DNA from: a virus
IMG/VR virus record: IMGVR_UViG_3300035660_000002
Coordinates: 1-64,000 of that record
Direction: 5' to 3' (one strand)
DNA: 64,000 nt
Shown here: positions 2,472 through 21,677 of the stretch, piece by piece
How positions within the stretch are numbered: the first letter of the stretch is position 1
Layout of the letters: every line of letters begins with the position of its first letter
Notes under the pieces: generated by a model
Told to the model about the DNA's origin: nothing
The model's input: the letters and a program-made list of their open reading frames with translations, nothing else
Databases searched by the model: none
Made by a program: the position numbers and the translations under genes

Positions 2472-2548
2472 GACACTATCCTCCTTAGGTTATTATCGAA
2501 CATCGGTACCTTCATCCACGACAGCGATTCTCCTCCTTCCTTTATTCA

Positions 2549-2641
2549 TCATCTTATTCTTTTCCAAACCATTCCCAACACTGCCCATATTAACAGACTT
2601 AATGCATTTGCTATCATTACTGCTAATACCATTTTAATCAT
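2549..2641 (-). CDS. Possible 30-aa membrane peptide
   Basis: Own translation MIKMVLAVMIANALSLLIWAVLGMVWKRIR; single hydrophobic helix with basic tail; fills an intergenic gap. Confidence 0.3.
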   Translation of the reverse strand: MIKMVLAVMIANALSLLIWAVLGMVWKRIR

Positions 2642-2642
2642 A

Positions 2643-3404
2643 TTAGTTATCCTTCATCCGGTCTATGCCGGAGATTATATTTACATCCTCCGGCGGCACT
2701 TCCAATGTCTTTCCGTTGCTGTCGAACTTGACCTCGAGTTCGCCGCCGTCATGATCTGTCACTACACCTTTCGATCCTTGTGGCATAGTAAATGACACAT
2801 ACTTAACGTCACGCTTCAAAGAGACGCGCTTGTCAACAAACTTGGAGATGTCGCCGCGCTTTTCGGCTACCTCCGAGGCAAAGATTTTATTCCATTCAGC
2901 GATTGCCCTGCGGTATGACCCATCGCCCTTTTTCATCAAAGGAGATGGCTTTCCTGTAAAGATGTTTGGTAATTTTGCGGCAGGACTATTGTTATAAGCG
3001 TCCATTCCGGCATTAGCATAATCTTCCGCCGACTTAAAATTTCCCGGCTCTAATGCTACCTTCCCCTCATCCGCACAGTTGTAGGAAACTTCCCCTGTCG
3101 TTCTGTTCTTTCTGTAGCATTCCGGTCCGCCACAATGAGGGCATACTGATTCATTCGTATCCACTTCAAACACCTTCAGCAACTTATCGATCAGCTGATC
3201 CTGCTCCTCAGAGAAATGCCAGCGCACGTCCTTTTGCTTGTTGTACCATTCCCGGGCCGTGTTGTTCTTGAGCTCCTCACTCATCGCCTGCCAGTCCGCT
3301 ACCATCTCTGCTATGTCGATCGGAGGCATCCGTGTCGCGTCTACCACAAAGTCCGACTCGTCCCGGTCTTTCGGATCTAGTAGTCTAACTTGTGTGTTAC
3401 CCAC
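2643..3404 (-). CDS. C-terminal part of HEG-split polyprotein: end of HD-like (DUF5662-type) domain, Zn finger, SH3/KOW-like domain
   Basis: MPPIDIAEMVADWQAMSEE completes the HD-like domain begun in 4175-6685; own AGGAG RBS and GTG start inside the end of the GIY-YIG ORF; CPHCGGPEC; terminal SH3-like module. Confidence 0.72.
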   Translation of the reverse strand: MGNTQVRLLDPKDRDESDFVVDATRMPPIDIAEMVADWQAMSEELKNNTAREWYNKQKDVRWHFSEEQDQLIDKLLKVFEVDTNESVCPHCGGPECYRKNRTTGEVSYNCADEGKVALEPGNFKSAEDYANAGMDAYNNSPAAKLPNIFTGKPSPLMKKGDGSYRRAIAEWNKIFASEVAEKRGDISKFVDKRVSLKRDVKYVSFTMPQGSKGVVTDHDGGELEVKFDSNGKTLEVPPEDVNIISGIDRMKDN

Positions 3405-4173
3405 AATGCAAAGCTCCTGTTTTTATTCCTTTGTTCCAAGGTATTTTTCCTATATGTGCATCTCTGTTTTTATCATTAGATTCTTTTGTATGGTGCTTCC
3501 CAAAGAATGGATGCTTTTCTCCAACTCGTCCAATCATCCCATTCTTCTTTCTGAGTTCCCAATCAGTATTTCCTTGCTTAAAACCACCATATCGGCACTT
3601 GCGACCCAGTACCCACCCGTCCACTTTATATTTATCTACATCTTCCTGCTTGACGAATGCCGCCATGCCCAAAACCAGATTGTGCATATGCTTACTACCA
3701 GCTGGGCCTTTATTTATTTTCCGCACACACCGAAGCCGTTCTGCCTGAGCTATTTTTACTTTCTCTGATCTGTTCTTTGCAGCAACGCTCTGCTTTCTCC
3801 GTGTTTCTTCAGACATCTTTTTACCAAACGATGGACTACCTACTCCCCGTCTACCGTACATAGGGTTAGCGCTGCCTTTTCTGCACACTCCAGTGTCCCC
3901 GCCATCCCCACCCACAGCTATATTGTAACACTGGTCTTTACCAAAAATCTTTTTATACTCTGCAATATATATCTTTTCTAGTTCGTTCAACTTTACTATA
4001 TCTTCTGCTCTGGCTATCACTTCTACTCTAAACACAGTTGCGCCGTACTTTCGTAAAGCTCTAATCAAACGTAAGCCAGATCCGTAGTAGTGCTGCACAA
4101 AGTTACCTTTCTTTTTCCCAATATACACAGATCCATTAACTGTATTTATCGTTTTGTAAATATATCCAAACAT
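3397..4173 (-). CDS. GIY-YIG homing endonuclease with NUMOD3 repeats
   Basis: GYIYKTINTVNGSVYIG, HYYGSG, LNELEKIYI and YNIAVGG motifs, then NUMOD3-like segments (MSEETRRKQS, KHHTKES); AT-rich; probable start ATG 4173. Confidence 0.92.
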   Translation of the reverse strand: MFGYIYKTINTVNGSVYIGKKKGNFVQHYYGSGLRLIRALRKYGATVFRVEVIARAEDIVKLNELEKIYIAEYKKIFGKDQCYNIAVGGDGGDTGVCRKGSANPMYGRRGVGSPSFGKKMSEETRRKQSVAAKNRSEKVKIAQAERLRCVRKINKGPAGSKHMHNLVLGMAAFVKQEDVDKYKVDGWVLGRKCRYGGFKQGNTDWELRKKNGMIGRVGEKHPFFGKHHTKESNDKNRDAHIGKIPWNKGIKTGALHCG

Positions 4174-4174
4174 T

Positions 4175-6685
4175 CTATAAATTCCTTCTGTATTCTTCCC
4201 CTTCAACTGACCAATATTCTGGGTGATGTTTATTCGTAAAAATGTGCCTCTCAGTCGCTTTGTTCTCGTCTTCATCCGGCAGCGTGCCCGGAGTCTTGTA
4301 GCTCTTAAAGTTATCCTGCTTGTGCCGCCACGATATCTTTATGTAGGGCGTACGCTCCGGCTCCTCGAGCTTGGATGCATCATGATGCTCCACCTGAGCC
4401 ATCAGGTCGCCACAGTCCGCGCCATTCAGAATATGCGCCTGCTCTAGCCTCTTGGCCGCTGCCTGTACGAGAGCTATATGCTTGGCCGTGCGTTCCTCGA
4501 AGTATTTTTCCTTCTCTTCTTGGCTTGCGTCGGCTTCCTGCAGACGTTCCAAGTCCTCTATGAAATATGTAAAGGTTGCGCCTCTCTTTGTGCGCACCTG
4601 AGCTTTGTCACGAGATACAAGTTCCACTGTTCCTTCAAGTCCCTGGTCGTCGCCGATCTTGACACGGACTTTATCGCCCTCTTTGACAGATTCTTGTGCA
4701 TTGGCTTTATGAATGTTCGGGTTAGGATTGTCCGCGAATTTCTTTGATGCCACACCATCCTTGATCTCTTTCACATAGTCAATGTCACCGCCGTTTATGA
4801 CACTCCAGCTCTTAAAATGCTCATCACAGAACCATGCATGCGCCATGCCCTCTGCCCACTTAACTTCCTTTGTCGGTGGCTTGTCGCACTCCATACACTT
4901 ATCATGACTATGACTTTCATTCACGGATTCCTTCGCTCTCTCTTTGCCTTTTAGGAACTCGGCACCTTTCTTGACCGCTCCGACTGCGCCTCGCGCGCCC
5001 TTCTCCGCTGCCCACACATCCTTCATGAAGAACCTTTTGATGTGCCCGGCCATTGTGCTCTTATAGAATGGTATGACATCAAACATGAGCTGTGAGTGCT
5101 TGCACATAATGCCGTACTGCTTCGGGTTCCTGATCCTTGGAGGCCTATTCTCCGGCTCACCATACTTCGTGCCACGCTGTGTTGTGGTATACGCCGGACC
5201 CCAATATTGGAAGGAAGGACAATTATGGACAAACACGCCTGCAGCAACGAGGAAGTTATGACTATCTTCCACAAATAAATCGTAGACTGGTACTTCTTTA
5301 TCCAAATCTATTATAGTGATCTTTACTACCTTATGATTATGCATCTTCAAGAACTTTCCAGTAATAGGATCCCGTGGCCATGCTTTATTACGCTCTGTCG
5401 TAACTGCACTCGCACGAGCTATTTCTTCTGAGCATGCCCATCTTTTAGCAGACGCCTCTTTCATGCGTTCACGAGTTTCCTCCGATATCTTTCTATTCTG
5501 CCCTGCTTTTATAATACTTTCCCTATTTTTTGGGTTCTTCCACATGTTCTTCATCTGCGCACTAAAAAACTTCCTACCCTCTGCACTCTGGACGAAAGCA
5601 ACGCCCTTCTCATTAAAATGCTTTACGACATCCGGTCTCTTCTCAGCAAATATTCTTCCTGCGTTTGCGTTCCGAATGCTCATCTCTTTTCTAAACTGCG
5701 GATCGTTACGCGCTTTCTCTATGCTTTTGATAACATTCTGCTTACCTAATCTTGCGTGATAATACCAATGCTCAAGACGTCCCATCCATCCCTGATTTTC
5801 TGGTCGATTATCTAATGTATTAAAGTTCTTATGATGAACTGTAAGCCACTTTTCTTTTCCACTTCTCACGAGTTCGTATTTTTTATCATATTGATCTTTC
5901 AGCACAGTCTCAGCAACAATCCTGTGCACCATCTTGAATATTGGCCTGCCCATCCTATCTACTTTTGAATTGTACTTGACCTGCAAGTACTGTTGGGAGA
6001 ACTTCTTGTTTTTACTCAACTTCATATACAATGGCATCAGAGAATCGCCAGTCTTGATCTCCTCTGCTCTCTTATATGTGCCATCTCTCATTCGATACAG
6101 ATGATCTACTGTGCTCTTTATTGTCTTTCCATTATCCAAGGTAACCTCTATCAAATGAGACGTTATCCCTGTAACTCCGAGGCATCTCGCTTTCTTCGGT
6201 GTAAAGTCGCCGTGCTCGTCAGAGGAATATATCCAAAAAGTTTTTGTAGTTCCGTACTCATTCAACATCTCTTCCATGGTAAGCACTCTGCCATCAAGCA
6301 ATGGCACTTTAGTATCGCCAGTCAAACAGCTGCATAGTATCTTAAGGTCGGCCTGATCTACTACGGCCGCGCCGAGTCTCCTCGCGTCAACGCCACTCTT
6401 GTCCTTCTTCCAGTTCCTCATGTCCTGCGCTTCTTTTGCTATTATCTTTCTTATGTCCGCAAATTGCACGGTGACATCATACTTCAGCCCTGCGGTCGTG
6501 GCTGACGTCACCTTGAAGTACCAGACGCCGGCATCTTCTTTTACCAACTTGACGCCGCCTGCGCCTGCCACCTGATCCACACGATCGTAGAACGGTGGAA
6601 AGAGCCGGGTGATAGAGTCCTGCTTCCGCAGTATGCCCCCTATCGGTTCCTCTGACAATTTCCTGGATTCAGCGTATACGTCCAT
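4175..6685 (-). CDS. Intein-containing modular protein: SWIM-type Zn finger domain, Zn ribbon, KOW/SH3 module and N-terminal part of HD-like (DUF5662-type) domain
   Basis: After intein removal reads LCSCPSFQYWG...RNP...MCKH (SWIM-like CxC..CxH); CMECDKP..FCDEH; EGDKVRVKIGDDQGLEGTV; H..HDASKLEEPE..H..NKHHPEYW. Confidence 0.72.
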   Translation of the reverse strand: MDVYAESRKLSEEPIGGILRKQDSITRLFPPFYDRVDQVAGAGGVKLVKEDAGVWYFKVTSATTAGLKYDVTVQFADIRKIIAKEAQDMRNWKKDKSGVDARRLGAAVVDQADLKILCSCLTGDTKVPLLDGRVLTMEEMLNEYGTTKTFWIYSSDEHGDFTPKKARCLGVTGITSHLIEVTLDNGKTIKSTVDHLYRMRDGTYKRAEEIKTGDSLMPLYMKLSKNKKFSQQYLQVKYNSKVDRMGRPIFKMVHRIVAETVLKDQYDKKYELVRSGKEKWLTVHHKNFNTLDNRPENQGWMGRLEHWYYHARLGKQNVIKSIEKARNDPQFRKEMSIRNANAGRIFAEKRPDVVKHFNEKGVAFVQSAEGRKFFSAQMKNMWKNPKNRESIIKAGQNRKISEETRERMKEASAKRWACSEEIARASAVTTERNKAWPRDPITGKFLKMHNHKVVKITIIDLDKEVPVYDLFVEDSHNFLVAAGVFVHNCPSFQYWGPAYTTTQRGTKYGEPENRPPRIRNPKQYGIMCKHSQLMFDVIPFYKSTMAGHIKRFFMKDVWAAEKGARGAVGAVKKGAEFLKGKERAKESVNESHSHDKCMECDKPPTKEVKWAEGMAHAWFCDEHFKSWSVINGGDIDYVKEIKDGVASKKFADNPNPNIHKANAQESVKEGDKVRVKIGDDQGLEGTVELVSRDKAQVRTKRGATFTYFIEDLERLQEADASQEEKEKYFEERTAKHIALVQAAAKRLEQAHILNGADCGDLMAQVEHHDASKLEEPERTPYIKISWRHKQDNFKSYKTPGTLPDEDENKATERHIFTNKHHPEYWSVEGEEYRRNL
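5222..6328 (-). mobile_element. Intein (369 aa) with HNH-type endonuclease
   Basis: Starts CLTGDTK, block B TVDHLY, ends VYDLFVEDSHNFLVAAGVFVHN followed by Cys; internal VHRIVAE..VHHKNFNTLDNRPEN HNH motif. Confidence 0.92.
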
Positions 6686-6687
6686 CT

Positions 6688-6834
6688 CTACATCCCTATA
6701 TGTTCGTGTGGGTCGAAGTCAGGATTGTAATCCTCAATCTTGGGTTCCCTGTCCCACAAGTTCATCCAGGTCACTGCAACGCACCACAAACCCAGCATGA
6801 TCACAATCACTGAGATGCTTAAATTTTTAAACAT
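6688..6834 (-). CDS. Small membrane protein (48 aa)
   Basis: Own translation MFKNLSISVIVIMLGLWCVAVTWMNLWDREPK...; one TM helix; fills the gap between genes. Confidence 0.45.
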   Translation of the reverse strand: MFKNLSISVIVIMLGLWCVAVTWMNLWDREPKIEDYNPDFDPHEHIGM

Positions 6835-6849
6835 ACAGCATCCTCGGGC

Positions 6850-7560
6850 TCAGCGCCGTTGTGCCATCATGATCCAGCGCGATTCTTTCCGCAACGTTTC
6901 AATCAACCTGTCTCTTTCCTTCAGTCCCTCATCCACCATCGTCTGTCCATCTGTCTGCAGACCTATCATCTGGCTCTTCCTTAATATGTTGCCTTCCAGC
7001 ATCATGACCGTTGCCCGCGCATGCTGTCTTATCCATCCGTATATAAATTCATCCAGGATATCCTCATTTGGTAAAATTCTCTTTGTGCCTATGACTGCGA
7101 CAGCTGACGATCCTCTCGGCACCTGCTGCAGGAAAAGCCATCCGCCTTTTGTTGAGTCGTCACTGCGTATCCACTTCCACCTGAAGTCGTTTCCAAGGTA
7201 TATCCTATATCCTTCAAACGTGTGAGACAAAAGCATGAGGTCATTGGTGTATCTGTCCAACGTTATAAATCCTAGTAGCACCCACATCGGGTGATTCGAG
7301 AACAGCTCCTCCTGCATTGTCGATGGGTATGCTCTAACGACTGTCTTTATTTCTGCATTGAGCTGTATGTGTGCCTCTACTGCGCCCCCCGTCACAAGCG
7401 TTCCTGGAACTGGGAACATCCTCACTACCTTATATGCAGAGTGCGTGTTCCAATCAAGTATGCTCTGCTCTACAGCCAGATCTACCGCAGACGGAGTCAG
7501 AGCGAGCGCGAGGGGCTGGAATGATTTCATGATCCAATCTCTGATCTGTTCTGGTTTCAC
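6850..7560 (-). CDS. Probable neck/head-closure protein (T4 gp13-like position)
   Basis: 236 aa directly after the major capsid gene; C-terminal LQTDGQTMVDEGLKERDRL resembles neck-protein tails; assignment mostly by synteny. Confidence 0.5.
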   Translation of the reverse strand: MKPEQIRDWIMKSFQPLALALTPSAVDLAVEQSILDWNTHSAYKVVRMFPVPGTLVTGGAVEAHIQLNAEIKTVVRAYPSTMQEELFSNHPMWVLLGFITLDRYTNDLMLLSHTFEGYRIYLGNDFRWKWIRSDDSTKGGWLFLQQVPRGSSAVAVIGTKRILPNEDILDEFIYGWIRQHARATVMMLEGNILRKSQMIGLQTDGQTMVDEGLKERDRLIETLRKESRWIMMAQRR

Positions 7561-7577
7561 TTGATGTCCTCTTTAGA

Positions 7578-7611
7578 AAACTGGGGCGGGCGTTTTTACC
7601 CGCCCCAGTTT
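7578..7611 (-). terminator. Rho-independent terminator after the major capsid gene
   Basis: AACTGGGGCGGG-loop-CCCGCCCCAGTT stem followed by TTCT on the coding strand. Confidence 0.75.
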
Positions 7612-7642
7612 AATTACTATCTAATTACCAATATCTACTGAA

Positions 7643-9181
7643 TTAGTAATTAGAGATGTCCCCGTAGCAGAACATACCGGGGTTGATAACCTTTATTGCC
7701 GCCTGTGAGAGGAAGCCGCGCTGAGTGGTCAGATCAGCGAGCGTCACAGGATCCGTTGCATACAGCGGAACGTAGGGCGCGAATATGATACCTGCGAACA
7801 GGTAGTTATCGCCCCTGAACAGCTCAACGTACTCATCCGCCAGATAGAACGGATTACAGATGATCAGCCTGTTGCCCAAGGTGCCATGAACGTATGGGCC
7901 TGCTGGAGGCTTGGTTCCAATACCTGCGGCCGGTTTGTACTCCGGTAGCTGCTCGATCAAGCTGCAGACATTGATGCCGCCAACTGCTACGTTCGCGATT
8001 GCACGCAGGGTCTTTGCGAATATGTTCGCCGATCCTTTGCTCATGTACCTCTTTAACTCATGGATCCTCCAGATCCACTCCTGTCCGGCGCCAACCGTAC
8101 AGTTAAAGGTACCAGGGCCTGTAGCACTGCCAGCCCCACGTGATGTCGTCTTGATCTGCGACAGCACCGTCTGGTCGATCGCGAACCTGATCTCCTGCGT
8201 TGCGAACTTCATGCCCTCATCCGCTAACACCATGCCGTGAATCTTCTGCAGGTTGATAGCTGCAAACACGGTATAGTTCAGCTTCAGCGGGAACACCCGG
8301 GCATCGACGTTTTCAGACACGACCTCAAGATCCAGGCCGCCGATCCTGTCTGCGTAACCCGCGCAGCCAGCGTCGCACCTCTCTACATCATACCTGTAAT
8401 TAACCGTTGACGTTGTAGCCGCGTCAATGGTTCCACCGCCGCCAGCATCAAGCACGATGACGCCTGATCCCAGTGTGTAAGTGCCGACAACACCCGACCA
8501 AGCAGTATCAAATGGTGTGGTGACGGTATAATACGCCTGCAGTGTCAGCGAAGTGGTACTGCGGAACTGAACCACTCTTGTGCTGCCGCCTTTGGTGACT
8601 GTGAGACCATTCACCGTGACCGAGAGATCAATCAACGGGAAGAACCTACACGCCGTCAACGTTCTGCCCTGCGCAGGTGAACCCGCAAGGTTTGCTTCGG
8701 CTATCACTTCGTCAGACGCATATGATCTTGCGTCCGCCGATGCCGCATGCCCGACCTTTGCCCCGATCAGCTGATCTGTTACTCCGACCGTACCCTTTGT
8801 GGTCGCGGCCTTTATGTTCATGAAGTATACCTGGGCCTGCGGTCTATCGATAGCCTGAACGATAGACACGTGATCGGCTACCAGGCTGGGCAACAGCGCA
8901 GGAATAGTCGGAAGCATCTGCCTCGCGAACGCGATTGCGTCCGAATAGGTAGCCTCTGACACCATCCCGCCCATCTTGTTCAACACATAGAAGTCGAACA
9001 AGTTATCGCAGCACTGTGCGATATTTGCTTTCTGATACTCCTGCAGATCCCTGCCCTGGCTCTTGAAGAACTTCTCAACGACAGCGATGTACGGCTGCCA
9101 ACGGGCCATCGCTTCCGTCTGCCTCTTCATGAGCTCAGATCTGCGGGCTTCCGCGAGCTTTCTGAAATCAACTTGTGGCAT
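7643..9181 (-). CDS. gp23: Major capsid protein, T4 gp23-like
   Basis: VQAIDRPQAQVYFM and IIFAPYVPLY..TQRGFLS motifs of the gp23 family; propeptide ending VSE|A like the gp23 cleavage site; follows the protease. Confidence 0.92.
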   Translation of the reverse strand: MPQVDFRKLAEARRSELMKRQTEAMARWQPYIAVVEKFFKSQGRDLQEYQKANIAQCCDNLFDFYVLNKMGGMVSEATYSDAIAFARQMLPTIPALLPSLVADHVSIVQAIDRPQAQVYFMNIKAATTKGTVGVTDQLIGAKVGHAASADARSYASDEVIAEANLAGSPAQGRTLTACRFFPLIDLSVTVNGLTVTKGGSTRVVQFRSTTSLTLQAYYTVTTPFDTAWSGVVGTYTLGSGVIVLDAGGGGTIDAATTSTVNYRYDVERCDAGCAGYADRIGGLDLEVVSENVDARVFPLKLNYTVFAAINLQKIHGMVLADEGMKFATQEIRFAIDQTVLSQIKTTSRGAGSATGPGTFNCTVGAGQEWIWRIHELKRYMSKGSANIFAKTLRAIANVAVGGINVCSLIEQLPEYKPAAGIGTKPPAGPYVHGTLGNRLIICNPFYLADEYVELFRGDNYLFAGIIFAPYVPLYATDPVTLADLTTQRGFLSQAAIKVINPGMFCYGDISNY

Positions 9182-9224
9182 ATATTTACCTTTCGTTATG
9201 TCTCTGTTTTCGGTTTAGATTCTT

Positions 9225-9277
9225 TCAGCCAAAGTGTGGCCGCCATTTATATCTTTACTCAGCCGAAGTGCGGCTGA
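9225..9277 (-). promoter_or_regulatory. Two CACTT-loop hairpins flanking a TATAAAT late-promoter-like box in the capsid leader
   Basis: TCAGCCG-CACTT-CGGCTGA (9259-9277), TATAAAT (9245-9251), CGGCCA-CACTT-TGGCTG (9226-9242). Confidence 0.55.
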
Positions 9278-9286
9278 ATAGGATAT

Positions 9287-11890
9287 CTACCTTATTCCCG
9301 CTACCAGCCTTTCTGTCTCTGTTATCATCGGATCCTTATCCCCATCCGGTAGTTCAATATGTATGCTTCCCGGCGCTCCTCCACCCATCATGCCTTCCCT
9401 GAGAGCGAACCTTATCTTGCTGATCATGCTGTCGACCTCCTCCGCCGTCTTGCACTGCCTTAGCATGACCAGAGTGTTTTCAGGGATCTGGAGGCCCGAT
9501 TCACGCACCCTCATCTCCACAACAGTCCTCTGGAACATATCTGCTTCATGCTTGGCCTTTTGCTCAGCTATCATAGTCTCGTAATGCTTCTTGACGCTCT
9601 CGATCTTCTTCTCGTAGATGCCTTTGATCTCCTTAAGCAGATCCTCGCCGAACTTCTTTATCTGCGCCTTGGCCTGCTCAGTTATCTTGGTCATCTTCCC
9701 CTGAGTCTCTGCAGCAATCGACTCCGCTACTTCCATTGCCTTGTCGCGCTCTGCCTTGGAAATTGCTTCGTTCTTGCGCGCCTCTGCCAGGACTTTTATC
9801 ATGCTCTTGTATAGACTCATCGGGGTCTTTGCCTCGGAGAGAACCTTCTTGTCCTTGTCCGGCAGGAACATGTCATCTGACGCCTTCTGCATCTCTTTGT
9901 ATATGGTCTCGAAGTCTATTCCTGTGTTGTCCTCTTTTATAACGCCTTTGCCCATAGCCTTGCCCCCTTTGTCGGTTGATTCTTTTAGTTTATTGATTGC
10001 CTGCGCGAGCGTATCCTCCGCGAGCTTTCTTTCCACTGTATTTAAAGGAGTCTTGCGGTCTGGGGAGAACATCCTGCCGAACCTTACAGGGTTCTTCTCG
10101 GCTATCGCCTTGAACTCTGTCAGCTCCTCCGCACTCCAGGTTTCCCATGTGAACTTCAATCCTTCACGCACTGATTCCTTGGCTTTTTCACCCCTGCATG
10201 CCGGGCATAATGTGTATTCATTGTTGTCGACCGGCTTGCCACAATTACCACATGGCACCGGCTTTGTCCCGGGCTTCATTGCTACCCTGGGCTTGTCCGG
10301 GTTGTGGAACGCAATGGCTTCCTTGACTATCTTCAGATGCTGTATCTCCGCCTCAAAAGGTTCCTTGGCGCCATCCATCAGCACGTCCACGGTATATGTA
10401 TAATTCTCCTTATCGATCATCAGCTTCTTCGGAGACGATTTTACTGTGCCCTTCGCACCCTGCTTTGCGCCCACCTGTTGTGCGGCCAACGGATAGCTTT
10501 CAGCGCTCGCAGTGAACTCCACACGATCCCCTGCACCTATCCCACGCTCCCCTATATCCCCTTTCGCCTTATCCTGCGCTGCTCCTGCCCCTGTGGTGCC
10601 CTGTGGGATGCCGGAGGGCCCGCCGCCTGCGCCTGCTTCCATCTCTTTTATTTTTCTCTTCTTCCCGGCCGCCTTCTGCACCCGGGCCTCATTCACATCT
10701 GTGCCTGTGATCTCTTGCATGAGGGCCTGCTTCTCTGCAGGTGTCATGGTGTATCCGCTGTCCTCAAGCGCCCTCACCACATCGTTGAATATGTCATCTG
10801 AGTCAGCCTGCACATTTGGGAAGTCCTTTTCCCAGCTCTGGTATGCCTGCATGATCTGCTTGGCGTACTTGCCTTGGCCTTCCCCCATGATCCTTGGAGT
10901 ATCCTGCCTGAGCGCCTTCGCCTTGTCACCGCCCGCGCCTGTCCCTGATGGAACGGCAGGTTCCCCTATGTGGGCAGAGTCTCCGACTTCTTTTACCTGC
11001 CCTTCTTTCTTGAAATCATCCAGTGCCTGCCGGAGCGTTGCGTCAGAGAGCGTATGCCATGCTACCTTATTCACCTTTAGCACGTAGTCTTTGAATGCCT
11101 GCCCTGCGGCCGTTACTTCCGCATCAATATCTTCACGCACTTTGTTCTCGTTTGCGTGCGCACATCCCTTCATGCACTTCTTTTCCGACTTTTTGCACTG
11201 GCACGCCTTGTGCCCTTTGTCGTGCTGGATGCTCTCAAGTAAATCCTTCGCCTCTGACACATGCATTGACTCGAGCATAACAGTAGCATACTGCCGGTCG
11301 ATCTTCTCATTGTCAATCCCCGTCTTTATGATTCCCACAACATCCCTTTCTACCGATTCAGGGTATGCACCATATGTCGACGCATCCGCCGTAAAGTCAA
11401 CGGTCTTCAAAGAATATGATTCCGGAACAACATCGTAGAATGTTTCCTCGCCTTCCTGACATTCCTCCAGATCTCCCTCAGCCCTTGTTGACATGCCTAT
11501 GCCACATTCGGCCCTGAGAAGCGTATCCACAATCCTGCCGTATGGAGTATCAAGTATATCGGATCCACACTTCTCAATGTTACCTTCCTTAAATATTTCT
11601 GTCACTACGTGGGATATCTTTTCCGTGTTGGATTGACTGGTGTCTTTCGGATGCTCGGCGTGACCGAACAGGCTGCGGGTCCTGAGCTTCTCCCTTATAT
11701 CCGGATCCTGGTCTACCTTCTCCCACACTTCATTGCGGTACCTGCGCTTGTTCCGGTTCAGTTCTCCTATCTTGCATATGGGATATATAACGTGACAGAG
11801 CACTCCCTCTGCCAGCTTCTTACGATCCGATTCCGTTATCGTCGCTTTTCCTGTCATCCTCTCAATCAGTGTTTGCTTCTTTAATAGCAT
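9287..11890 (-). CDS. gp21: Prohead protease (T4 gp21-like) fused to a long modular/scaffold region
   Basis: NRNKRRY, LFGHAEHP, ILDTPYGRIV, GMSTRAEG and VDFTADAS protease motifs; then about 650 aa of small modules and a coiled-coil C-terminus. Confidence 0.9.
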   Translation of the reverse strand: MLLKKQTLIERMTGKATITESDRKKLAEGVLCHVIYPICKIGELNRNKRRYRNEVWEKVDQDPDIREKLRTRSLFGHAEHPKDTSQSNTEKISHVVTEIFKEGNIEKCGSDILDTPYGRIVDTLLRAECGIGMSTRAEGDLEECQEGEETFYDVVPESYSLKTVDFTADASTYGAYPESVERDVVGIIKTGIDNEKIDRQYATVMLESMHVSEAKDLLESIQHDKGHKACQCKKSEKKCMKGCAHANENKVREDIDAEVTAAGQAFKDYVLKVNKVAWHTLSDATLRQALDDFKKEGQVKEVGDSAHIGEPAVPSGTGAGGDKAKALRQDTPRIMGEGQGKYAKQIMQAYQSWEKDFPNVQADSDDIFNDVVRALEDSGYTMTPAEKQALMQEITGTDVNEARVQKAAGKKRKIKEMEAGAGGGPSGIPQGTTGAGAAQDKAKGDIGERGIGAGDRVEFTASAESYPLAAQQVGAKQGAKGTVKSSPKKLMIDKENYTYTVDVLMDGAKEPFEAEIQHLKIVKEAIAFHNPDKPRVAMKPGTKPVPCGNCGKPVDNNEYTLCPACRGEKAKESVREGLKFTWETWSAEELTEFKAIAEKNPVRFGRMFSPDRKTPLNTVERKLAEDTLAQAINKLKESTDKGGKAMGKGVIKEDNTGIDFETIYKEMQKASDDMFLPDKDKKVLSEAKTPMSLYKSMIKVLAEARKNEAISKAERDKAMEVAESIAAETQGKMTKITEQAKAQIKKFGEDLLKEIKGIYEKKIESVKKHYETMIAEQKAKHEADMFQRTVVEMRVRESGLQIPENTLVMLRQCKTAEEVDSMISKIRFALREGMMGGGAPGSIHIELPDGDKDPMITETERLVAGIR

Positions 11891-11901
11891 ATATATCTCC
11901 T

Positions 11902-12333
11902 CTAAATTAGCATTCTCATCTCTGTCCGGTATTCCTTGATTTTGGCAAGGTTTCCGTACAGCTTATTCCAGTCAGCGTCCTTAAGAATATCCCCTATGTA
12001 TTTACACTGCACTTCTTGGCAGTAGACACTTCGTATTGATCTCGGCAATCTGCATCCTCGCTCTGTGAGAAATCCTGTCGTATCAGACCACCCGTATATA
12101 TTTTTAAGACATGTCAGTTGTAATGCCGCCTCGGGAATCTTTGTTATCCCGTTATGGTCAGACTTCTTCTTCCCCGGAAGCTTTCCGTCAAAGTCGAAGT
12201 GTGCGTTCGATTCAGCGCATCCAGCGCAACAGTTCTCACAAGATCCTTTCTTGCCGCAGCACTGCTCGACCGCTCTTTTAAAGAACGCTTCTATCTCCGC
12301 TATGAGGTCATCTATCGTTTCGTTCTTTTCCAT
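11902..12333 (-). CDS. Cys-rich protein resembling the YkgJ-type Zn/Fe-S chelating family
   Basis: CCGKKGSCENCCAGC and GFLTERGCRLPRSIRSVYCQEVQC; start revised to ATG 12333. Confidence 0.5.
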   Translation of the reverse strand: MEKNETIDDLIAEIEAFFKRAVEQCCGKKGSCENCCAGCAESNAHFDFDGKLPGKKKSDHNGITKIPEAALQLTCLKNIYGWSDTTGFLTERGCRLPRSIRSVYCQEVQCKYIGDILKDADWNKLYGNLAKIKEYRTEMRMLI

Positions 12334-12342
12334 ATTAAATAA

Positions 12343-12434
12343 TGGGCGGCGTAAGCATTTCTGCCTGACGGCTATGTGTTGGTATATGCGCCTAGTGGGC
12401 GTCATAGATACCCTTTTTAGTGCATCGCCGCCCA
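12343..12434 (-). ncRNA. Structured intergenic cis-element (unknown class)
   Basis: 9-bp terminal stem TGGGCGGCG/CGCCGCCCA enclosing a CACTA-loop hairpin; occupies the whole intergenic gap. Confidence 0.45.
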
Positions 12435-12439
12435 ATCCT

Positions 12440-13738
12440 TTATCTAACCTTTCCGATCATTCTCTCGAAGCTGTCGTCAGCTTCTCTCTCAGTCACAGAT
12501 GGCACTCGCTCCTCTACCACACCCTCAGCCTCGGCCCCTTTACGGATAAGTTCCATCGGATCCAGATGTGTCTCTGTGTACACCCTGAGCCGACTGTTGT
12601 CTCCCTTCTCGATGAGAGTCGTAATCATTTTATCATCAACCTCACCTGCAGGATTCTCGGGGACTTTGCCTTCGCCGACCTTGCCTTCCTCATCCACTTG
12701 CTTCTGTGTATCAGGATGTACCATAATTCCAACTAATCCTTTGTCCTCCACGAATTTGAATATAACTGATCCATGAGAGAACTCATCCGTAAGAGCCTGT
12801 ACCTCTTTATGCAAAGCATTTTCAGTATCTACAGGCAAGTTACCGTGTTCGATAGCAACAACCCATCCATCTTTGTTTGCCACACTTACTTTATATTTTG
12901 CCGCTATCTTTGTTGCCGCATCCTGCACGGCCTGTGAGTAGTCCTGCAGTGTGCTCTTGGGTATACGTCCTTCACCAACCTTCTTTTTCCGCTCCTCAAG
13001 ATCTATTTCCATCACATCTATCTTGCTGGCCATAGACCCGAAAAGCCTCTTCACGAGAGCTTCGGCCTGCTTTAACCCCATCGTCGTAGTTTCGTACTCT
13101 ACGGTACCTGCGCCAACTCCCGCTCCCTCAAATCCGTGCTGCTGTAACACATCCATCTCATCGGCCATACCCCTCGGGCCGCTGATCATAATTATCTTGC
13201 CCTCTGTTACCTTGCGCTCACCGACCTTCTTTACATCGTCCTTATTGAGCGCAGGAGCCCCCTCTTTGCCCTTATTCTTGTCCTTATCGAGAGATCCCTC
13301 ACCCTGCTTAACAGGCGCCGTATTCGTGCCTGCGGGCTTGATATCATCCTTTGCCAGGTTCGGGTCACCTGCCTGCTGTCCTTTGGGCGCCGGGGCCGCG
13401 CCTTCCCCTCCTGCCACCTTCTTTGCGCCATCGAGGCTCGGGTCGCCTCCTGCCTTGTTCTTGTCACTGCCGAGTGATCCTGCGCCTTGAGCTACCGGCG
13501 CGGTGTTCGTTCCTGCCTTGGCCATATCCTCTTTGGAGAGGTTAGGGTCGCCTGCCTTGCCTTCGCCATCCTTGACGGCTCCCTTATCCTGATGTACCGG
13601 GGCATCGCCTGCCTTGACCTCGGTCTTCACTGCAGGGTCCTTGCCGGGCTTGCCATCGAGCTTCTCTTTGCCTTCGGCACCGGGCTTCTGATCGGTGGCC
13701 ACGACTTCCTCTTTTACCTTATCTATAGATTTTCCCAT
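12440..13738 (-). CDS. Prohead core/internal head protein with internal tandem repeat
   Basis: K/G/A/D/P-rich N-terminus with two about 60-aa repeats (AGDPNLxKxD..AGTNTAPVxQGxGSLxxDKNK); VxE|G putative protease sites; lies between portal and protease. Confidence 0.65.
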   Translation of the reverse strand: MGKSIDKVKEEVVATDQKPGAEGKEKLDGKPGKDPAVKTEVKAGDAPVHQDKGAVKDGEGKAGDPNLSKEDMAKAGTNTAPVAQGAGSLGSDKNKAGGDPSLDGAKKVAGGEGAAPAPKGQQAGDPNLAKDDIKPAGTNTAPVKQGEGSLDKDKNKGKEGAPALNKDDVKKVGERKVTEGKIIMISGPRGMADEMDVLQQHGFEGAGVGAGTVEYETTTMGLKQAEALVKRLFGSMASKIDVMEIDLEERKKKVGEGRIPKSTLQDYSQAVQDAATKIAAKYKVSVANKDGWVVAIEHGNLPVDTENALHKEVQALTDEFSHGSVIFKFVEDKGLVGIMVHPDTQKQVDEEGKVGEGKVPENPAGEVDDKMITTLIEKGDNSRLRVYTETHLDPMELIRKGAEAEGVVEERVPSVTEREADDSFERMIGKVR

Positions 13739-13752
13739 GACGATTTCTCCTT

Positions 13753-14049
13753 TTATTTTGAGTCCTTGACGGCCTCTATAAGTTTAAGCATCAGCTGTTC
13801 GCGCTCACCTTGCGCCTTCTTGTCCTCAGCCTGAAGCATTACATACTTGTCTATGGTTCCTGCGAGCTTTTCGACATTGCTCTGTGTCACATCTACTTTC
13901 TTGTCAACTGCGGCCACCTTACTCTCTACCGCCTCAACCTTCTTAGGCATACTGGCAAGCCCAATCGCGCCTGCTGATATCGCGGCTACGATTGCCAGCA
14001 GAGCTATCCACGACTTCATCTCAGTCACCAGTTCGCTTATCTTCTTCAT
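13753..14049 (-). CDS. Membrane-anchored coiled-coil protein
   Basis: One TM helix (WIALLAIVAAISAGAIGLAS) then heptad-like region. Confidence 0.6.
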   Translation of the reverse strand: MKKISELVTEMKSWIALLAIVAAISAGAIGLASMPKKVEAVESKVAAVDKKVDVTQSNVEKLAGTIDKYVMLQAEDKKAQGEREQLMLKLIEAVKDSK

Positions 14050-14050
14050 C

Positions 14051-14284
14051 CTATACTCCTATTGACCCTTTTCCCGGCTGCAGGATCCTGCTTTCCTCTT
14101 GCATCGTCAGCGTCTGTATCGCGCCTGCCAGCATCAATATCGCCTGCTTCTTATCGACCGTACATATCACGATAGGGTTCTTGGTGCCCTTCTGAACACC
14201 TATCGTTATGTACGCCGTGATTTCAAGACCGCTGCCATCGCCATTCGCTCCTACTATGCCCTTGTCCTGCCCTTCCGCCCCCAC
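14051..14284 (-). CDS. Hypothetical protein
   Basis: 77 aa ORF with GGAGG RBS. Confidence 0.55.
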   Translation of the reverse strand: MGAEGQDKGIVGANGDGSGLEITAYITIGVQKGTKNPIVICTVDKKQAILMLAGAIQTLTMQEESRILQPGKGSIGV

Positions 14285-14309
14285 GCTACACCTCCCGTTT
14301 ATATTATGT

Positions 14310-14852
14310 TTATGGCGCCCCCACCGATCCTACACCGCCTGCGCCTTCGTTGCCTTGCATCTTGGCAATACGCTGCTTGGCATCCTCTTCGGCTTCTGCT
14401 CGGTTCTCTTCCGGATATATTGCAGGATGTTCTTTCTCCCATCGCTGTATCGCAGCTGACAACGTATTGCCGCCACCTATGATGATCCTGCCTATACTTA
14501 TAGCGTCATGCGATCCGTTGCCAATAACATCCTCTATCGTAGAGTCCTTACTTTGTGGATCAAGCACCAACCAGAACGTACGTTTCGAGTTGAACGCCTC
14601 GCGCATCTTGAGCTTTCGGCTTGCTGTAACACCATCTATTCTATACGCCCATGTACCGTCAGGAAATGTTCTGTCCAAGGCATTCACTGCCTCATTGCCT
14701 CTTTCCTTATACTCCTCTACCGCTTCTTGAGGGATGGACTTCTCATAAAACTCCTGGCCTTCGTTGGTCAGTTCAAAGGATATCTTGCCGGCCTCGTTCA
14801 CACCTTCCCCTGCTGTCACTGCCTTCATCTCTTTATATAGTTTCTCGTCCAT
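14310..14852 (-). CDS. Probable internal head protein
   Basis: 180 aa, VNE|A and MRE|A putative protease sites, coupled to the upstream core protein. Confidence 0.6.
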   Translation of the reverse strand: MDEKLYKEMKAVTAGEGVNEAGKISFELTNEGQEFYEKSIPQEAVEEYKERGNEAVNALDRTFPDGTWAYRIDGVTASRKLKMREAFNSKRTFWLVLDPQSKDSTIEDVIGNGSHDAISIGRIIIGGGNTLSAAIQRWEKEHPAIYPEENRAEAEEDAKQRIAKMQGNEGAGGVGSVGAP

Positions 14853-17800
14853 TATCTCTTCTCCTTTAGCCCATGCTTCTCGAGCAGGTCTTTTATCATG
14901 CCGTCATCAACCTCACCTGCCGGATTGGCCGGCACCTTGCCCTCAGCGGCCGCATCCTTTATCACATAAAGATCATCGAGATTGGTGCCGACATGAATAG
15001 TAGGATTGGCCTCCCATGCCGCTTCGACTGAAGCAAATCCCAGCCTCTTGGCTATGCCGTATGACTCATCGTAATTCTTGAAATCTTCGATGTCATTGTC
15101 GTAGCTGGTCCTCAGCTTGCCCTTCCATTCCTTCAGCACGGCCTCATGCGCCTTCTTCTTTTTCTTCATGGCCTTGCCGATCGCATGCCACTTCTTTTCC
15201 TTTTTCGACATGCCCCCACATCCCTCATCGGCCTCTACGGCTTTCAGCTCCTCGGCTATGTCTGCTTCGGTAACGGTTTCCCGTACGCCCTTGCCGATCA
15301 GAGCATTGATCTGCGCAACCTCTGCCTTATCCAAATCGCGGACATGCTCAGCCTGATCATTGGCCCACCACAGTTCTACATCGGCATCGCCTGCCTTCTT
15401 TCCGGCATCCTCGAGCTTGTCGGCTACATCCTGCATACTTGTCAGGAGATCTGATTCTTTGCCGCCTATCTTCAGCACGAACGCAAAGTCCTCGTCATCA
15501 CCACCTTCGGAGACAGATTCCTTCTTGCCTTTCCGCCTTTCAATCTCGGCCTGCAGCTCCCTGATGAGCTCGTTGTCATGAAGCCCCATTGCTTCCAGCT
15601 CGGTCTGATGCTGAAGAGCCTTTTGTAGTTCTGAATCTTCGATCTGAAGAAGCTTCCACTTGCCCTCGCCTTCATCTATATTCGGTTGTTCCATCCTATG
15701 TTGGTACATTTTAATCTTTTTTGATAAACTATCCATTCTATCTTGAGCATCCTGCTGCATATCTTTATTTGATTCGGTACTTGCTCTTTTGTAATCCTCT
15801 TTAGCTTTTGAAAATTGTGTCTGTAATGATGCTACCGTCCCCCCAATTCTTTTTCGTTCGGATTCGCTCATGACTTCATTTTCGATCTCGCCCTTCTTCT
15901 CACGGCTGTCAACCTCTTTCGGGTTCTTTATCTCCTCTGCGCCTACCTGTTCGGCTTCGTGCTCTTTCTTCAGCTCCTCACACTTCTGGTCGTATTCGAT
16001 CTGATTGATCTTCTCCTCATGGAAGTCTTTCAGGAGCTTGGTGATCTCCCTCTGATACGCGTCCTCTTTCTCCTGACGAGTCTTGGCGATGTCCCCTACC
16101 GGTGTTTCCCTGCCCTTCGCATCTTCCTTGGAGGCGGGAGTTTCCTCTTTGGATTCCCTCATCACATCCAGCCAGAACCTGCCGAACGGAGTGTTGCGCA
16201 CCAAAAATTCATACTCTTTCCCGTCCTCAAGCTCCTTCATCCATGTAGTGACGACCTGCTGCTGATCCTTCATCGCCTTGCCCGTTGCCTTGACTATAGC
16301 AAATCCCTTCTTCTTGTCCTCATCAGAGAGCTCCGCCGCCTCATTGGCCTTGCCACACTTCGGGCAGTTACCCTTCTGACACGGAAAGCATTTACCACCC
16401 TCTTTGGCTTCCGCTGCCGATAGCTTTGCGCCACAACATTTGCACCACAACTTGGCTATCCCGGCCTCATCTACTTTGGATTCATTATACTTCTTCTCAC
16501 ATGCGGCGCACACACCACTCTTGTCCTCGCTGGGCTTACCGCAGTATCTGCACTTCACAATGTCCTTGCCTTCATTCCTGCTGACCAGCGCCAGATCTTT
16601 TATCTTCTCTTGCGTCTTTTCGTTCTGCCCCCAATCAACCTCTACCGTATCGTTGTCAATTATCTTGGTAATGTTGCCGTTGACTTTAGATGTGTCGCGC
16701 CGCTCAACACCATCCCCTACTTTGGGCTGTGGTATAGCTTCCTCTACCTTCGCCTCGCTGGCCTCAACGTCCTTCTCTTCCTCTTTTGTCGGCTCTGTCT
16801 CTGGTGCCTTGGGATCGCTTGCAAGTGCCTCTTTCCTGCGCTTCCATGCGTCCTTGAGCCTGGTCTCTTGCTTGTCGTCTATGTCACCCTTTGTGGCCGC
16901 TTTCTCGAGAGCGTCCATAACGGTCTCAAGGGCACTTGCCTCAGTCGCCTTATGTATCTTGCGGAGGAAGGACATCGCATGCTTGGTACGTTCTGCGGCC
17001 GCGACCTTATCTTTCTTGGTCTCTTTGGCCTCGTTTTTCGCCTTCTGCGCCGGATCGAACCCTATCACGAGACTCGCCTCTGTCGCTTTCTCGGTCATGA
17101 GAAGCTCTATGACCTGATCCAACGTTTCCTGATCGAGGTCGTCGAATGTGATCGTATCCTCTGCGTTATCCACGCTGACCACCTGTTGCTTCTGGTTATC
17201 GACGTAGTATTCTTTATCCGCGATCATGACCTTCGGCATCTCTTTGACCGGTGCGGCCGGCGCGGCTGCTGCTGGATCCTTCTCAAACATCTTCACGTCC
17301 TGCCCTGCTTCCTTTACACTTTCCATTCTCGGCGCCTCTGCCGCACCTGGTTCCCTTGCGGGTTCGCCTACTTCGCCTGTTTCCATCTCATGCTCCGGCG
17401 ATTGCCCTTCAGGCTCACCTGCCAGTTCCGGTGGTATCTCCTTCTTGCCCTCCACCTTGAAGAGACCTAAGTCCTCGAGGAGCTTAAAGCTTATGGAGTC
17501 GATCTGCATGTCCTGCACGATCTGATATATGAAGTCCGCGTCCGGTATGCCCTCGGTGTTCTCTACGTTCTTTACCTCTTCATCGGAGATGCCGTAGAGC
17601 TTTATCGACTTGATGCTTGTCGAAGCGCCTTCTGCCGGGCTTGGCCCTGCCTCTGCGCCTGCGGGGCCTGCCGTGCCTGTCTCGCCCTTGTCGATGATGG
17701 CGTAGTACAGTTCATCGCCTGACGATCCGAAGTATACCTTTCCCTGTATCTCCTTCTCTTCCTCTTTGTCCGAGATCTCATAGAGTTTCTTGATCACGTT

Positions 17801-17980
17801 CTCTATGTTCGGGTCCTCAAGGTTCGGCACCACTCCTTCGGCGACCTTGCGGGCCTCCTCCAGGAGATGCAGTTCGTTTGACTGTTTCACAGCTGGCGGC
17901 CGGTTTGTTGATTCATTCAGAGCTTCGCTCTGCTTTAGTATACCCAGATTCTTTTCAATGTCTCCGAATAGCAATGGCAT
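14852..17980 (-). CDS. Large acidic modular prohead core/cargo polyprotein
   Basis: About 1040 aa (start revised to ATG 17980); E/K-rich; many xxE|A/S/G sites separating SH3-like, Cys-finger and helical modules. Confidence 0.7.
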   Translation of the reverse strand: MPLLFGDIEKNLGILKQSEALNESTNRPPAVKQSNELHLLEEARKVAEGVVPNLEDPNIENVIKKLYEISDKEEEKEIQGKVYFGSSGDELYYAIIDKGETGTAGPAGAEAGPSPAEGASTSIKSIKLYGISDEEVKNVENTEGIPDADFIYQIVQDMQIDSISFKLLEDLGLFKVEGKKEIPPELAGEPEGQSPEHEMETGEVGEPAREPGAAEAPRMESVKEAGQDVKMFEKDPAAAAPAAPVKEMPKVMIADKEYYVDNQKQQVVSVDNAEDTITFDDLDQETLDQVIELLMTEKATEASLVIGFDPAQKAKNEAKETKKDKVAAAERTKHAMSFLRKIHKATEASALETVMDALEKAATKGDIDDKQETRLKDAWKRRKEALASDPKAPETEPTKEEEKDVEASEAKVEEAIPQPKVGDGVERRDTSKVNGNITKIIDNDTVEVDWGQNEKTQEKIKDLALVSRNEGKDIVKCRYCGKPSEDKSGVCAACEKKYNESKVDEAGIAKLWCKCCGAKLSAAEAKEGGKCFPCQKGNCPKCGKANEAAELSDEDKKKGFAIVKATGKAMKDQQQVVTTWMKELEDGKEYEFLVRNTPFGRFWLDVMRESKEETPASKEDAKGRETPVGDIAKTRQEKEDAYQREITKLLKDFHEEKINQIEYDQKCEELKKEHEAEQVGAEEIKNPKEVDSREKKGEIENEVMSESERKRIGGTVASLQTQFSKAKEDYKRASTESNKDMQQDAQDRMDSLSKKIKMYQHRMEQPNIDEGEGKWKLLQIEDSELQKALQHQTELEAMGLHDNELIRELQAEIERRKGKKESVSEGGDDEDFAFVLKIGGKESDLLTSMQDVADKLEDAGKKAGDADVELWWANDQAEHVRDLDKAEVAQINALIGKGVRETVTEADIAEELKAVEADEGCGGMSKKEKKWHAIGKAMKKKKKAHEAVLKEWKGKLRTSYDNDIEDFKNYDESYGIAKRLGFASVEAAWEANPTIHVGTNLDDLYVIKDAAAEGKVPANPAGEVDDGMIKDLLEKHGLKEKR

Positions 17981-17993
17981 AATGTTCCTCCTG

Positions 17994-18347
17994 TTATCGA
18001 ATACCTTGTAATAGTTTCTCGAGAGTCCCTTTCGCCTCGTTTTCCGCATCCTTCTTAAAGTCATCTATTACTTTCGCTGTCTCCTCGCATATGCCTATAG
18101 ATGGCGCCGCAGCGGACTTGGCAAATGCCTCTGTCAGCTCGTCCGCATTCTCCTTTATCTTCTCACTTATGACTTTCCCTGTTTCAACCGGCGGCGCTCC
18201 TTGCAAGTCCTCTACCGCCATGTCCACGAATGTGGCGATGGATGGACTCTCTTCCCGGGCTTTCTCATGCAGTGCCCTCATGTCCGGGGCTTTACTCCCC
18301 AGGAGATCCCCTAGCGCTGCCGCTACGAATTCATTTGTCGCTGGCAT
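17994..18347 (-). CDS. Hypothetical head-region protein
   Basis: Start revised to ATG 18347; acidic helical. Confidence 0.6.
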   Translation of the reverse strand: MPATNEFVAAALGDLLGSKAPDMRALHEKAREESPSIATFVDMAVEDLQGAPPVETGKVISEKIKENADELTEAFAKSAAAPSIGICEETAKVIDDFKKDAENEAKGTLEKLLQGIR

Positions 18348-18348
18348 A

Positions 18349-21651: not shown

Positions 21652-21658
21652 TCTTTTC

Positions 21659-21677
21659 CTCACAGAAGTGCTGTAAG
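21659..21677 (-). promoter_or_regulatory. CACTT-loop hairpin sequestering the portal Shine-Dalgarno
   Basis: CTTACAG-CACTT-CTGTGAG (7 bp with one G-U); its 3' arm contains GAG of GAGG, 7 nt before ATG 21651. Confidence 0.55.

Follow-up and report, generated by a model that had tools for sequence, protein, structure and literature searches.

Analysis of the head region of an uncultured phage, IMG/VR record IMGVR_UViG_3300035660_000002, revealed long proteins that are built as chains of small autonomous modules, several of whose borders carry putative prohead-protease sites. The window, i.e., the whole stretch of DNA analysed, comprises positions 1 to 64,000 (64 kb) of a phage of about 133 kb; coordinates refer to it unless a related locus is named. 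The translations placed all genes of the head region on the minus strand. They are transcribed in the order portal, small proteins, giant protein, 180-amino-acid (aa) protein, 98-aa protein, 432-aa protein, 177-aa protein, protease-scaffold polyprotein, major capsid protein, 236-aa protein, SWIM-type protein, homing endonuclease, and 253-aa protein. Searches of Pfam and PHROGs recognised three components of this region, a gp23-like capsid protein, a gp21-like protease, and a split DUF5662, and identity to the nearest cultured phages was only 23 to 30%. An alignment-based scan of viral contigs yielded 32 related IMG/VR loci, a single-protein scan having yielded none. These loci share the order portal, homologue of a 144-aa protein, variable genes, protease-scaffold, capsid, 236-aa homologue, and SWIM protein.

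The protease-scaffold polyprotein (867 aa; 9287-11890) was matched by PF03420 over residues 44 to 153 (32.6 bits against a cut-off of 27; E of 7e-8) and by PHROG 207, "head maturation protease" (1.1e-23). The gp21-like protease occupies its first ~240 residues. An AlphaFold2 (AF2) model based on an alignment of 62 sequences had a predicted local distance difference test (pLDDT) score of mostly 80 to 97 over residues 13 to 230 (11201-11854), and a Foldseek search with this model returned chains of T4 gp21 (5JBL) as the top three hits (E of 4.8e-8; template-modelling [TM] score by target of 0.70 to 0.72, 0.71 for the best hit). A profile of the protease family compared with the sequences of the Protein Data Bank (PDB) gave a spurious polyQ match only. 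In the 62 sequences S134, D165, and S171 are invariant and H80 is nearly so; these are candidate catalytic residues. The 62 homologues range from 501 to 1,445 aa and have just the two ends in common. The middle (residues 231 to 689; 9824-11200) is unalignable among relatives, and AF2 models of its segments outlined a Cys cluster, a helical bundle (340-410), an unmodelled part (411-513), a zinc ribbon (541-560), and a helical unit (587-645). The C-terminal part that aligns with relatives covers only residues ~665 to 866. Within it lies the conserved, scaffold-like tail (residues 690 to 867; 9290-9823), in which a helix of ~110 residues (690-798; pLDDT of 74 to 93) carries many sites of the form hydrophobic residue-any residue-Glu (hxE) and is followed by ALRE832/G (a slash marks a candidate cleavage bond). 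E832 is invariant across the 18 closest relatives.

A His/Cys cluster (H..C.C......C...C; residues ~220 to 245, 11201-11290) lies directly after the protease domain and is conserved family-wide. This cluster and the Cys-rich 177-aa protein encoded next to the protease-scaffold gene (11902-12435; CC..C..CC..C) could be metal sites.

The major capsid protein (7643-9181) was matched by PF07068 (89.5 bits against a cut-off of 24.4; E of 3.8e-25). A propeptide cut is predicted after VSE76 (bases 8954-8962). The site MVSE/A, which an earlier note on this DNA had placed at the end of the propeptide, was confirmed by alignment: Glu76 is invariant in 30 relatives, position P3 is hydrophobic, and A/T-T follows. 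Removal of the propeptide at Glu76 is thus the predicted maturation step. The protease itself carries hxE columns at E10 (100% of the 62 sequences), E20 (90%), and E207 (92%); LIE10/ and ITE20/ precede the protease fold, and MLE207/ lies at its end. The capsid boundary and the protease ends thereby anchor the proposed hydrophobic-x-Glu cutting rule (INDEPENDENTLY) independently, if indirectly. In T4, gp21 shortens itself by nine residues at the N-terminus, trims the internal proteins and Alt, and takes 65 residues off gp23 (PMC9958956). An hxE ending at residues 8 to 12 was found in 5 of 15 head-region open reading frames (ORFs; the protease-scaffold, capsid, SWIM, 432-aa, and 98-aa proteins) and in 9 of 67 elsewhere in the window, a difference that was not significant (Fisher P = 0.076). 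The profile and fold matches and the conserved Glu76 support a head module of T4 type, in which the protease is of the gp21-like S77 kind and the capsid protein, gp23-like, has an h-x-E boundary that is invariant.

To set a baseline for motif enrichment, each protein was shuffled with its composition preserved (500 shuffles for the loose motif [VILM]xE[ASG]). The protease-scaffold polyprotein holds 16 loose motifs against 3.8 expected; none of the 500 shuffles reached 16 (z = 6). Plain hxE occurs 39 times in it against 17.9 expected. The giant protein was weakly enriched for the loose motif (11 against 5.7, P = 0.03), with plain hxE at expectation (26 against 27.3). Across the 32 related loci, the protease-scaffold was enriched 2.6-fold (z = 24). 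In the extensions of the 62 family members, hxE was enriched 1.5-fold and hxE[ASG] 2.35-fold (z of about 20), whereas the controls hxxE (0.84-fold), hxxxE (0.85-fold), hE (0.94-fold), hxD (1.15-fold), and hxK (0.99-fold) were not comparably raised. An artefact of amphipathic helices is unlikely, because the controls with other spacings and other P1 residues were flat or depleted.

A sharper joint, ES[VIL]xE, was seen five times when the window was translated in six frames: once in the protease-scaffold polyprotein (ESVRE/, residues 572 to 576, 10163-10177), twice in the giant protein (ESVxE, 17309-17323 and 15506-15520), and twice in the SWIM protein (ESVNE/, 4916-4930, and ESVKE/, 4679-4693). 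The expected number is 0.27, and none of 5,000 shuffles reached five. The 200- to 310-aa SWIM proteins of relatives have no such joint, whereas most of the extended ones (413 to 1,087 aa) have one to four, each opening an added segment; some protease-scaffold homologues hold six or seven. Shared descent of the flanks does not account for the joint, because different phages have it between unrelated modules. A second signature, E[GA][KRV][VI]P, has four copies in the six-frame window, all of them within the 432-aa and giant proteins.

The giant protein is encoded by a 1,070-aa ORF (14852-18064); its likely start is Met29 at 17980, which gives 1,042 aa. An exhaustive search with this protein returned 209 matches, almost all to one module each, and many of the matching proteins stand alone at 56 to 170 aa. 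The modules cover ORF residues 31-250, 340-445, 443-497, 498-534, 575-715, 861-929, and 980-1040. The giant protein is thus a mosaic chain of genuine, autonomous modules from at least seven separate families. The natural C-termini of homologues map to residues 496 to 498 (at RNE497/G), 635 (at MRE637/S), and 1036 to 1038 (at AAE1040/G). The view of the earlier note that the long proteins are strings of modules is therefore upheld by homologue ends and AF2 models, with several borders on x-x-E sites; the tripeptides that it listed were each found in the translations of the genes to which it had assigned them. Its proposal of module shuffling was borne out by the comparison among related phages, in which modules are exchanged at the joints. 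In P0064, the closest homologue of the giant protein, the joint ESVKE/A is kept as ESIQE/A, and an extra module is inserted there and followed by TQE/AG.

Two modules illustrate this autonomy. Module F (ORF residues 980 to 1040; 14945-15127) is a widespread domain of ~60 aa with more than 100 homologues, many of them stand-alone at 57 to 170 aa. Met1 of 13 stand-alone homologues aligns to E979 of LKE/W. An AF2 model of residues 960 to 1070 was confident (pLDDT of 82 to 96) for 980 to 1037 only and low on both flanks, so that the fold lies between LKE979/ and AAE1040/. Module F had no Pfam match, no PDB sequence match, and no usable Atlas match; Foldseek gave nothing significant against the PDB (best E of 4.3) or viral models (0.45), and a VIA-wide comparison gave only a Z of 2.4 to Cro, with no fold assigned. 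The second, SH3-like module (residues 443 to 497; 16574-16738) is bounded by VEE442/A and RNE497/G and has stand-alone homologues of 56 to 71 aa, whose C-termini are those at 496 to 498 mentioned above. It is 70% identical to residues 1694 to 1756 of a 2,266-aa protein in the related locus L002, where ESVAE/ follows. The L002 protein (2053-8853 of that locus) is encoded upstream of the protease-scaffold and combines a histidine phosphatase (PF00300, His_Phos_1, 3.8e-37), a WGR domain directly followed by VVE/A, and the SH3-like module; it contains three ESVxE joints.

The SWIM-type protein (4175-6685) carries an intein (residues 120 to 488, 5222-6328; Pfam Intein_splicing, 2.4e-17). Its signature, CxCxnCxH, reads across the intein junction, and intein-free relatives score 14 to 19 bits against the PF04434 cut-off of 19.6. 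The core is related to hypothetical viral proteins only. Three modules are added at the C-terminus: residues 591 to 669 form a zinc unit, residues 670 to 717 a KOW-like unit, and residues 718 to 836 the first half of DUF5662 (2.6e-15), whereas most relatives have a 200- to 310-aa SWIM protein without these modules or joints. The zinc module recurs in the related locus L031 with ESIxE on either side.

DUF5662 is split into two ORFs (2643-4275) by a GIY-YIG homing endonuclease gene (3397-4173; PHROG 314 at 6e-36, NUMOD3). The second half (profile positions 96 to 155) opens the 253-aa protein (2643-3404) and ends at VFE80/V, after which a Cys4 unit and an SH3-like unit follow. In L006 (18077-18712), L012 (2317-2982), and L015 (16475-17050), DUF5662 is encoded by one intact gene of 191 to 221 aa; the stand-alone proteins of L006 and L015 have ..VFE as their very last residues, and that of L012 runs three residues further. 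An Rfam search found no group I intron at 2400 to 4600 around the endonuclease gene, and the split looks like a genes-in-pieces arrangement. The earlier note had called this domain HD-like, a label that was not confirmed: searches of Pfam and PDB sequences gave no link of DUF5662 to HD.

The 432-aa protein (12440-13738) has a low-complexity, repeated N-terminal half and then three units of ~75 to 100 aa after VTE179/G, VGE256/G, and VGE356/G. It shares the peptide EGKVPxNPAGEVDDxMIxxLxEK with the C-terminal part of the giant protein (12605-12673, residues 356 to 378, and 14876-14944, respectively; 78% identity over 23 aa, E of 1.7e-6). In both proteins, the peptide sits directly behind a VGE/ or AAE/ site near the C-terminus, and further copies are present in P0077 and at the C-terminal end of an L015 protein of 224 aa. 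This candidate may be a targeting or binding tag. Recurrence between genes of the window, as proposed in the earlier note, was weak: it is limited to this peptide, a zinc-ribbon similarity (E = 1.5e-4), and two inteins. The SH3/KOW-like units showed no detectable mutual similarity among the window proteins, and the SH3 and KOW matches in Pfam, on which these assignments rest, stayed below threshold. Residues ~60 to 165 of the 432-aa protein are rich in Lys, Gly, Ala, and Asp and contain two repeats of ~60 aa (AGDPNLxKxD...GTNTAPV...). The 180-aa protein (14310-14852), with VNE20/A and MRE85/A, had neither a Pfam nor a PHROG family match, and the giant, 432-aa, and 180-aa proteins contained no Pfam family, enzyme, or peptidase domain at E ≤ 0.01.

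Taking these data together, we favour, with slightly better than even confidence, a prohead core of T4 type in which the protease is fused to the scaffold with swappable modules between them and is accompanied by head chains resembling polyvalent proteins, all of which the prohead protease cleaves at h-x-E joints. Direct observation extends to the family membership of the protease and the capsid protein, to the statistics of the motifs, and to modules that are autonomous and are exchanged at the joints. On this model, the chains would co-assemble into the prohead, and the protease would activate itself by cuts at LIE10/ or ITE20/ and at MLE207/, by analogy with T4 gp21. It would trim the capsid protein after the conserved VSE76 and cut the chains at their joints, turning the helical scaffold into small peptides and freeing folded modules of 5 to 12 kDa. 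That the freed modules stay with the DNA and are delivered to the host is a weaker proposition, which we consider doubtful. We offer only tentatively, as rather unlikely, the wider proposal that an uncultured clade of T4-headed phages loads its capsids with arrays of mini-proteins, made as polyproteins on core head genes or as giant chains, which would be freed at E-S-h-x-E and injected with the DNA as a re-assortable set of effectors.

Several results weigh against the favoured model. The earlier note had expected loose-motif enrichment in the whole protein set; this was strong in the protease-scaffold polyprotein and weak in the giant protein, and it failed for the 432-aa (3 against 2.2), 180-aa (2 against 1.1), SWIM (4 against 2.7), and 253-aa (0 against 0.8) proteins. 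In the 32 related loci, the variable genes upstream of the protease-scaffold were enriched 1.28-fold, compared with 1.32-fold in unannotated genes past the recognised head genes. The loose motif therefore marks the protease-scaffold and not the whole protein set, because only that gene is strongly enriched and the upstream genes are at background. The sharper joint is about three times above expectation (8 against 2.7) in the unannotated genes past the recognised head genes of relatives and thus does not occur in recognised head genes alone. Homology borders of the giant protein fell within four residues of an hxE bond in 5 of 11 cases against 2.2 expected, which is marginal (P = 0.048), and some borders carry non-canonical sites (RNE/G and AAE/G). 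The sites of the protease-scaffold model, which the note would have placed outside folded domains, showed no preference for element edges (7 of 11 against a background of 65%), and several lie inside the long helix; this comparison is uninformative, because 65 to 78% of the extension is edge or coil anyway. Histograms of hxE around the ends of BLAST high-scoring segment pairs showed only a diffuse 1.1- to 2-fold rise, and the corresponding histogram of natural termini is not independent, because one module family dominates it. The SWIM core has a weak match to a PHROG with the label "tail protein", and the SWIM protein may stay outside the prohead throughout. Most modules lack a known family or function, and their segments are mostly acidic or neutral. 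The chains would probably be cut within the capsid, and their packaging and injection are predictions. Modules acting as basic, histone-like DNA binders were also considered and were rejected, since most segments are acidic or neutral.

A reading in which the sites serve only the destruction of the scaffold is possible, at a probability well below even. In T4, gp21 cuts gp22, gp67, and gp68 down to short peptides that exit the prohead (PMC9958956). The chains would likewise be chopped and expelled before DNA packaging, the modules would aid assembly (size determination, contacts with portal or shell), and there would be no cargo. This would explain the enrichment in the protease-scaffold equally well as a cargo function, and it agrees with the restriction of strong loose-motif enrichment to that gene, here and in the 32 relatives, with the many sites within a family-wide conserved helix of ~110 residues, and with the faint resemblance of the tail to the 131-aa protein at 17994-18389 (E of 5e-4). 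The middle modules, however, are unconserved and swapped between phages, which is unexpected for fixed parts of an assembly. Module F and the SH3-like unit occur as free-standing small genes, and the chains of relatives hold enzyme domains (His_Phos_1 and WGR in L002, and DUF5662). Folded domains of 6 to 12 kDa would also be less apt to escape than short peptides.

It is improbable, in our estimate, that the chains are uncut multidomain proteins in which ES[VIL]xE and hxE/S form a flexible linker or seam kept by descent or recombination. Phages commonly encode polyvalent proteins of 2 to 15 domains, some of which are packaged without cleavage, an example being the virion RNA polymerase of N4 (PMC5512222); about 80% of the head proteins of SPN3US are uncleaved (PMC10052503). 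The excess of the joint in genes past the recognised head genes would fit such a seam, and domain borders match stand-alone termini in any multidomain protein. Against it, the h-x-E that closes the joint is the one found invariantly at the capsid maturation site and the protease termini, the joint recurs in different phages between modules that are unrelated, and h-x-E is enriched where hxD, hxK, hxxE, and hE are not.

It is very improbable that the sites are an artefact of Glu-rich amphipathic helices that yield hxE by chance, with sites chosen by eye: the proteins contain up to 13% Glu, four of six were unenriched after control for composition, and all gene classes of relatives show a background enrichment of ~1.3-fold, yet composition-preserving shuffles left the z scores of 6 here and 24 family-wide, the coiled-coil spacings were depleted with hE flat, and five ES[VIL]xE joints were found where 0.27 were expected, so that this explanation is largely refuted for the protease-scaffold and the joint and stands for the 432-aa, 180-aa, and 253-aa proteins when these are considered by themselves.

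The favoured model was compared with known systems. The T4 prohead core consists of the gp21 protease, the gp22/gp67/gp68 scaffold, and the internal proteins IPI to IPIII and Alt, which carry a capsid-targeting sequence (PMC9958956, PMC9026906). Shared with T4 are a gp21-type protease in sequence and fold, which begins with a short, conserved peptide up to LIE, a gp23-type capsid protein whose N-terminal propeptide ends in h-x-E, an h-x-E-rich scaffold, and extra non-essential proteins encoded beside the core genes. Unlike in T4, a single polypeptide of 867 aa holds protease and scaffold, separated by swappable modules, the joints are extended to E-S-h-x-E, and the candidate cargo is chained in proteins of up to ~1,040 aa, whereas T4 uses single proteins with a 10-residue N-terminal tag. 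The modules are acidic and the T4 internal proteins basic, and packaging and ejection are predictions here.

In the giant phages SPN3US and phiKZ, the proteases gp245 and gp175, respectively, perform head cleavage at A-X-E, and ejection proteins are present (PMC10052503, PMC5694885). Maturation there resembles the scheme proposed here: cleavage by an S77-family protease takes place after x-x-Glu, and many head proteins undergo processing. In the giant phages, the protease loses its C-terminal part, long propeptides receive several cuts, and a large amount of protein is ejected with the DNA. P3 is Ala, Ser, or Gly there and hydrophobic here, as in T4. Loss of an N-terminal propeptide leaves one mature fragment in SPN3US and phiKZ, whereas many mini-domains would be freed per chain here, and no homologues of their inner-body or ejection proteins were seen.

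Polyvalent proteins of phages and conjugative elements, described by Iyer, Burroughs, Anand, de Souza, and Aravind in 2017, have been proposed to ride inside the capsid and to be set free by proteolysis (PMC5512222). As in those proteins, long chains of shuffled, unrelated domains are encoded among late phage genes; the giant protein has at least seven module families, within the range of 2 to 15 shuffled domains, its gene lies between those for portal and capsid, and the L002 relative adds His_Phos_1 and WGR. A Pfam search found neither an embedded peptidase nor typical enzymes (ART, MPTase, methylase-helicase) here, DUF5662 being the only candidate. Polyvalent proteins have embedded peptidases of their own (zincin-like and others) and mostly recognisable enzymes, whereas here the prohead protease would have to release the modules in trans, at a joint that they share. 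Most modules here are 50- to 100-aa units of no known family, and some chains are appended to core head genes (protease-scaffold and SWIM).

A fusion of an assemblin-fold protease upstream of a scaffold, which frees itself at defined sites, exists in herpesvirus UL26. Fusions of that type have other site rules and are not known to carry variable, cargo-like modules between their two parts. The protease and capsid families, cutting at x-x-Glu, the packaging of extra proteins, and chains of shuffled domains are therefore already known. What differs is their combination, i.e., mini-domains that belong to no known family are chained, are attached to core head genes, and share a five-residue joint that fits the prohead protease; none of the papers searched connected joints for a prohead protease with polyvalent chains. 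If the joints are cut, any small protein could enter the capsid by being spliced onto a head gene with a five-residue joint, which would be a natural design for capsid cargo loading. Cutting would also give many orphan 50- to 100-aa phage domains, such as module F, a first functional context and explain why the protease-scaffold and SWIM genes of relatives range from 200 to about 1,500 aa. If the joints are left uncut or the pieces are expelled, the system would be an ordinary though unusually modular scaffold.

The remaining genes of the region are as follows. The portal gene (19144-21663), which contains an intein and is matched by the portal genes of relatives, forms the upstream limit of the head module. 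Small proteins are encoded between it and the giant ORF (18762-19196, 18349-18810, and 17994-18389). A membrane-anchored 98-aa protein (13753-14049) lies between the 180-aa and 432-aa proteins, and a conserved 236-aa protein (6850-7560) lies between the capsid and SWIM proteins. The splicing blocks of the portal and SWIM inteins are 34% (159 aa) and 55% (40 aa) identical, and this similarity indicates that the two inteins are related copies in two genes of the head module.

The capsid gene is split into two or three ORFs in several relatives (L003, 11908-14476; L006, 12788-16144; L007, 3785-6188; L008, 11618-14216; L011, 3844-5660), with an ORF of ~315 aa between the pieces in some of them. 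This arrangement suggests mobile insertions (introns, inteins, or endonuclease genes). Outside the chains described above, a 255-aa protein (1704-2471) has a hydrophobic, signal-peptide-like start (MKKLFTILAVVVMVAMMAFTGYAQ) and an aromatic last residue. It may be secreted or of outer-membrane type, which would be odd next to head genes.

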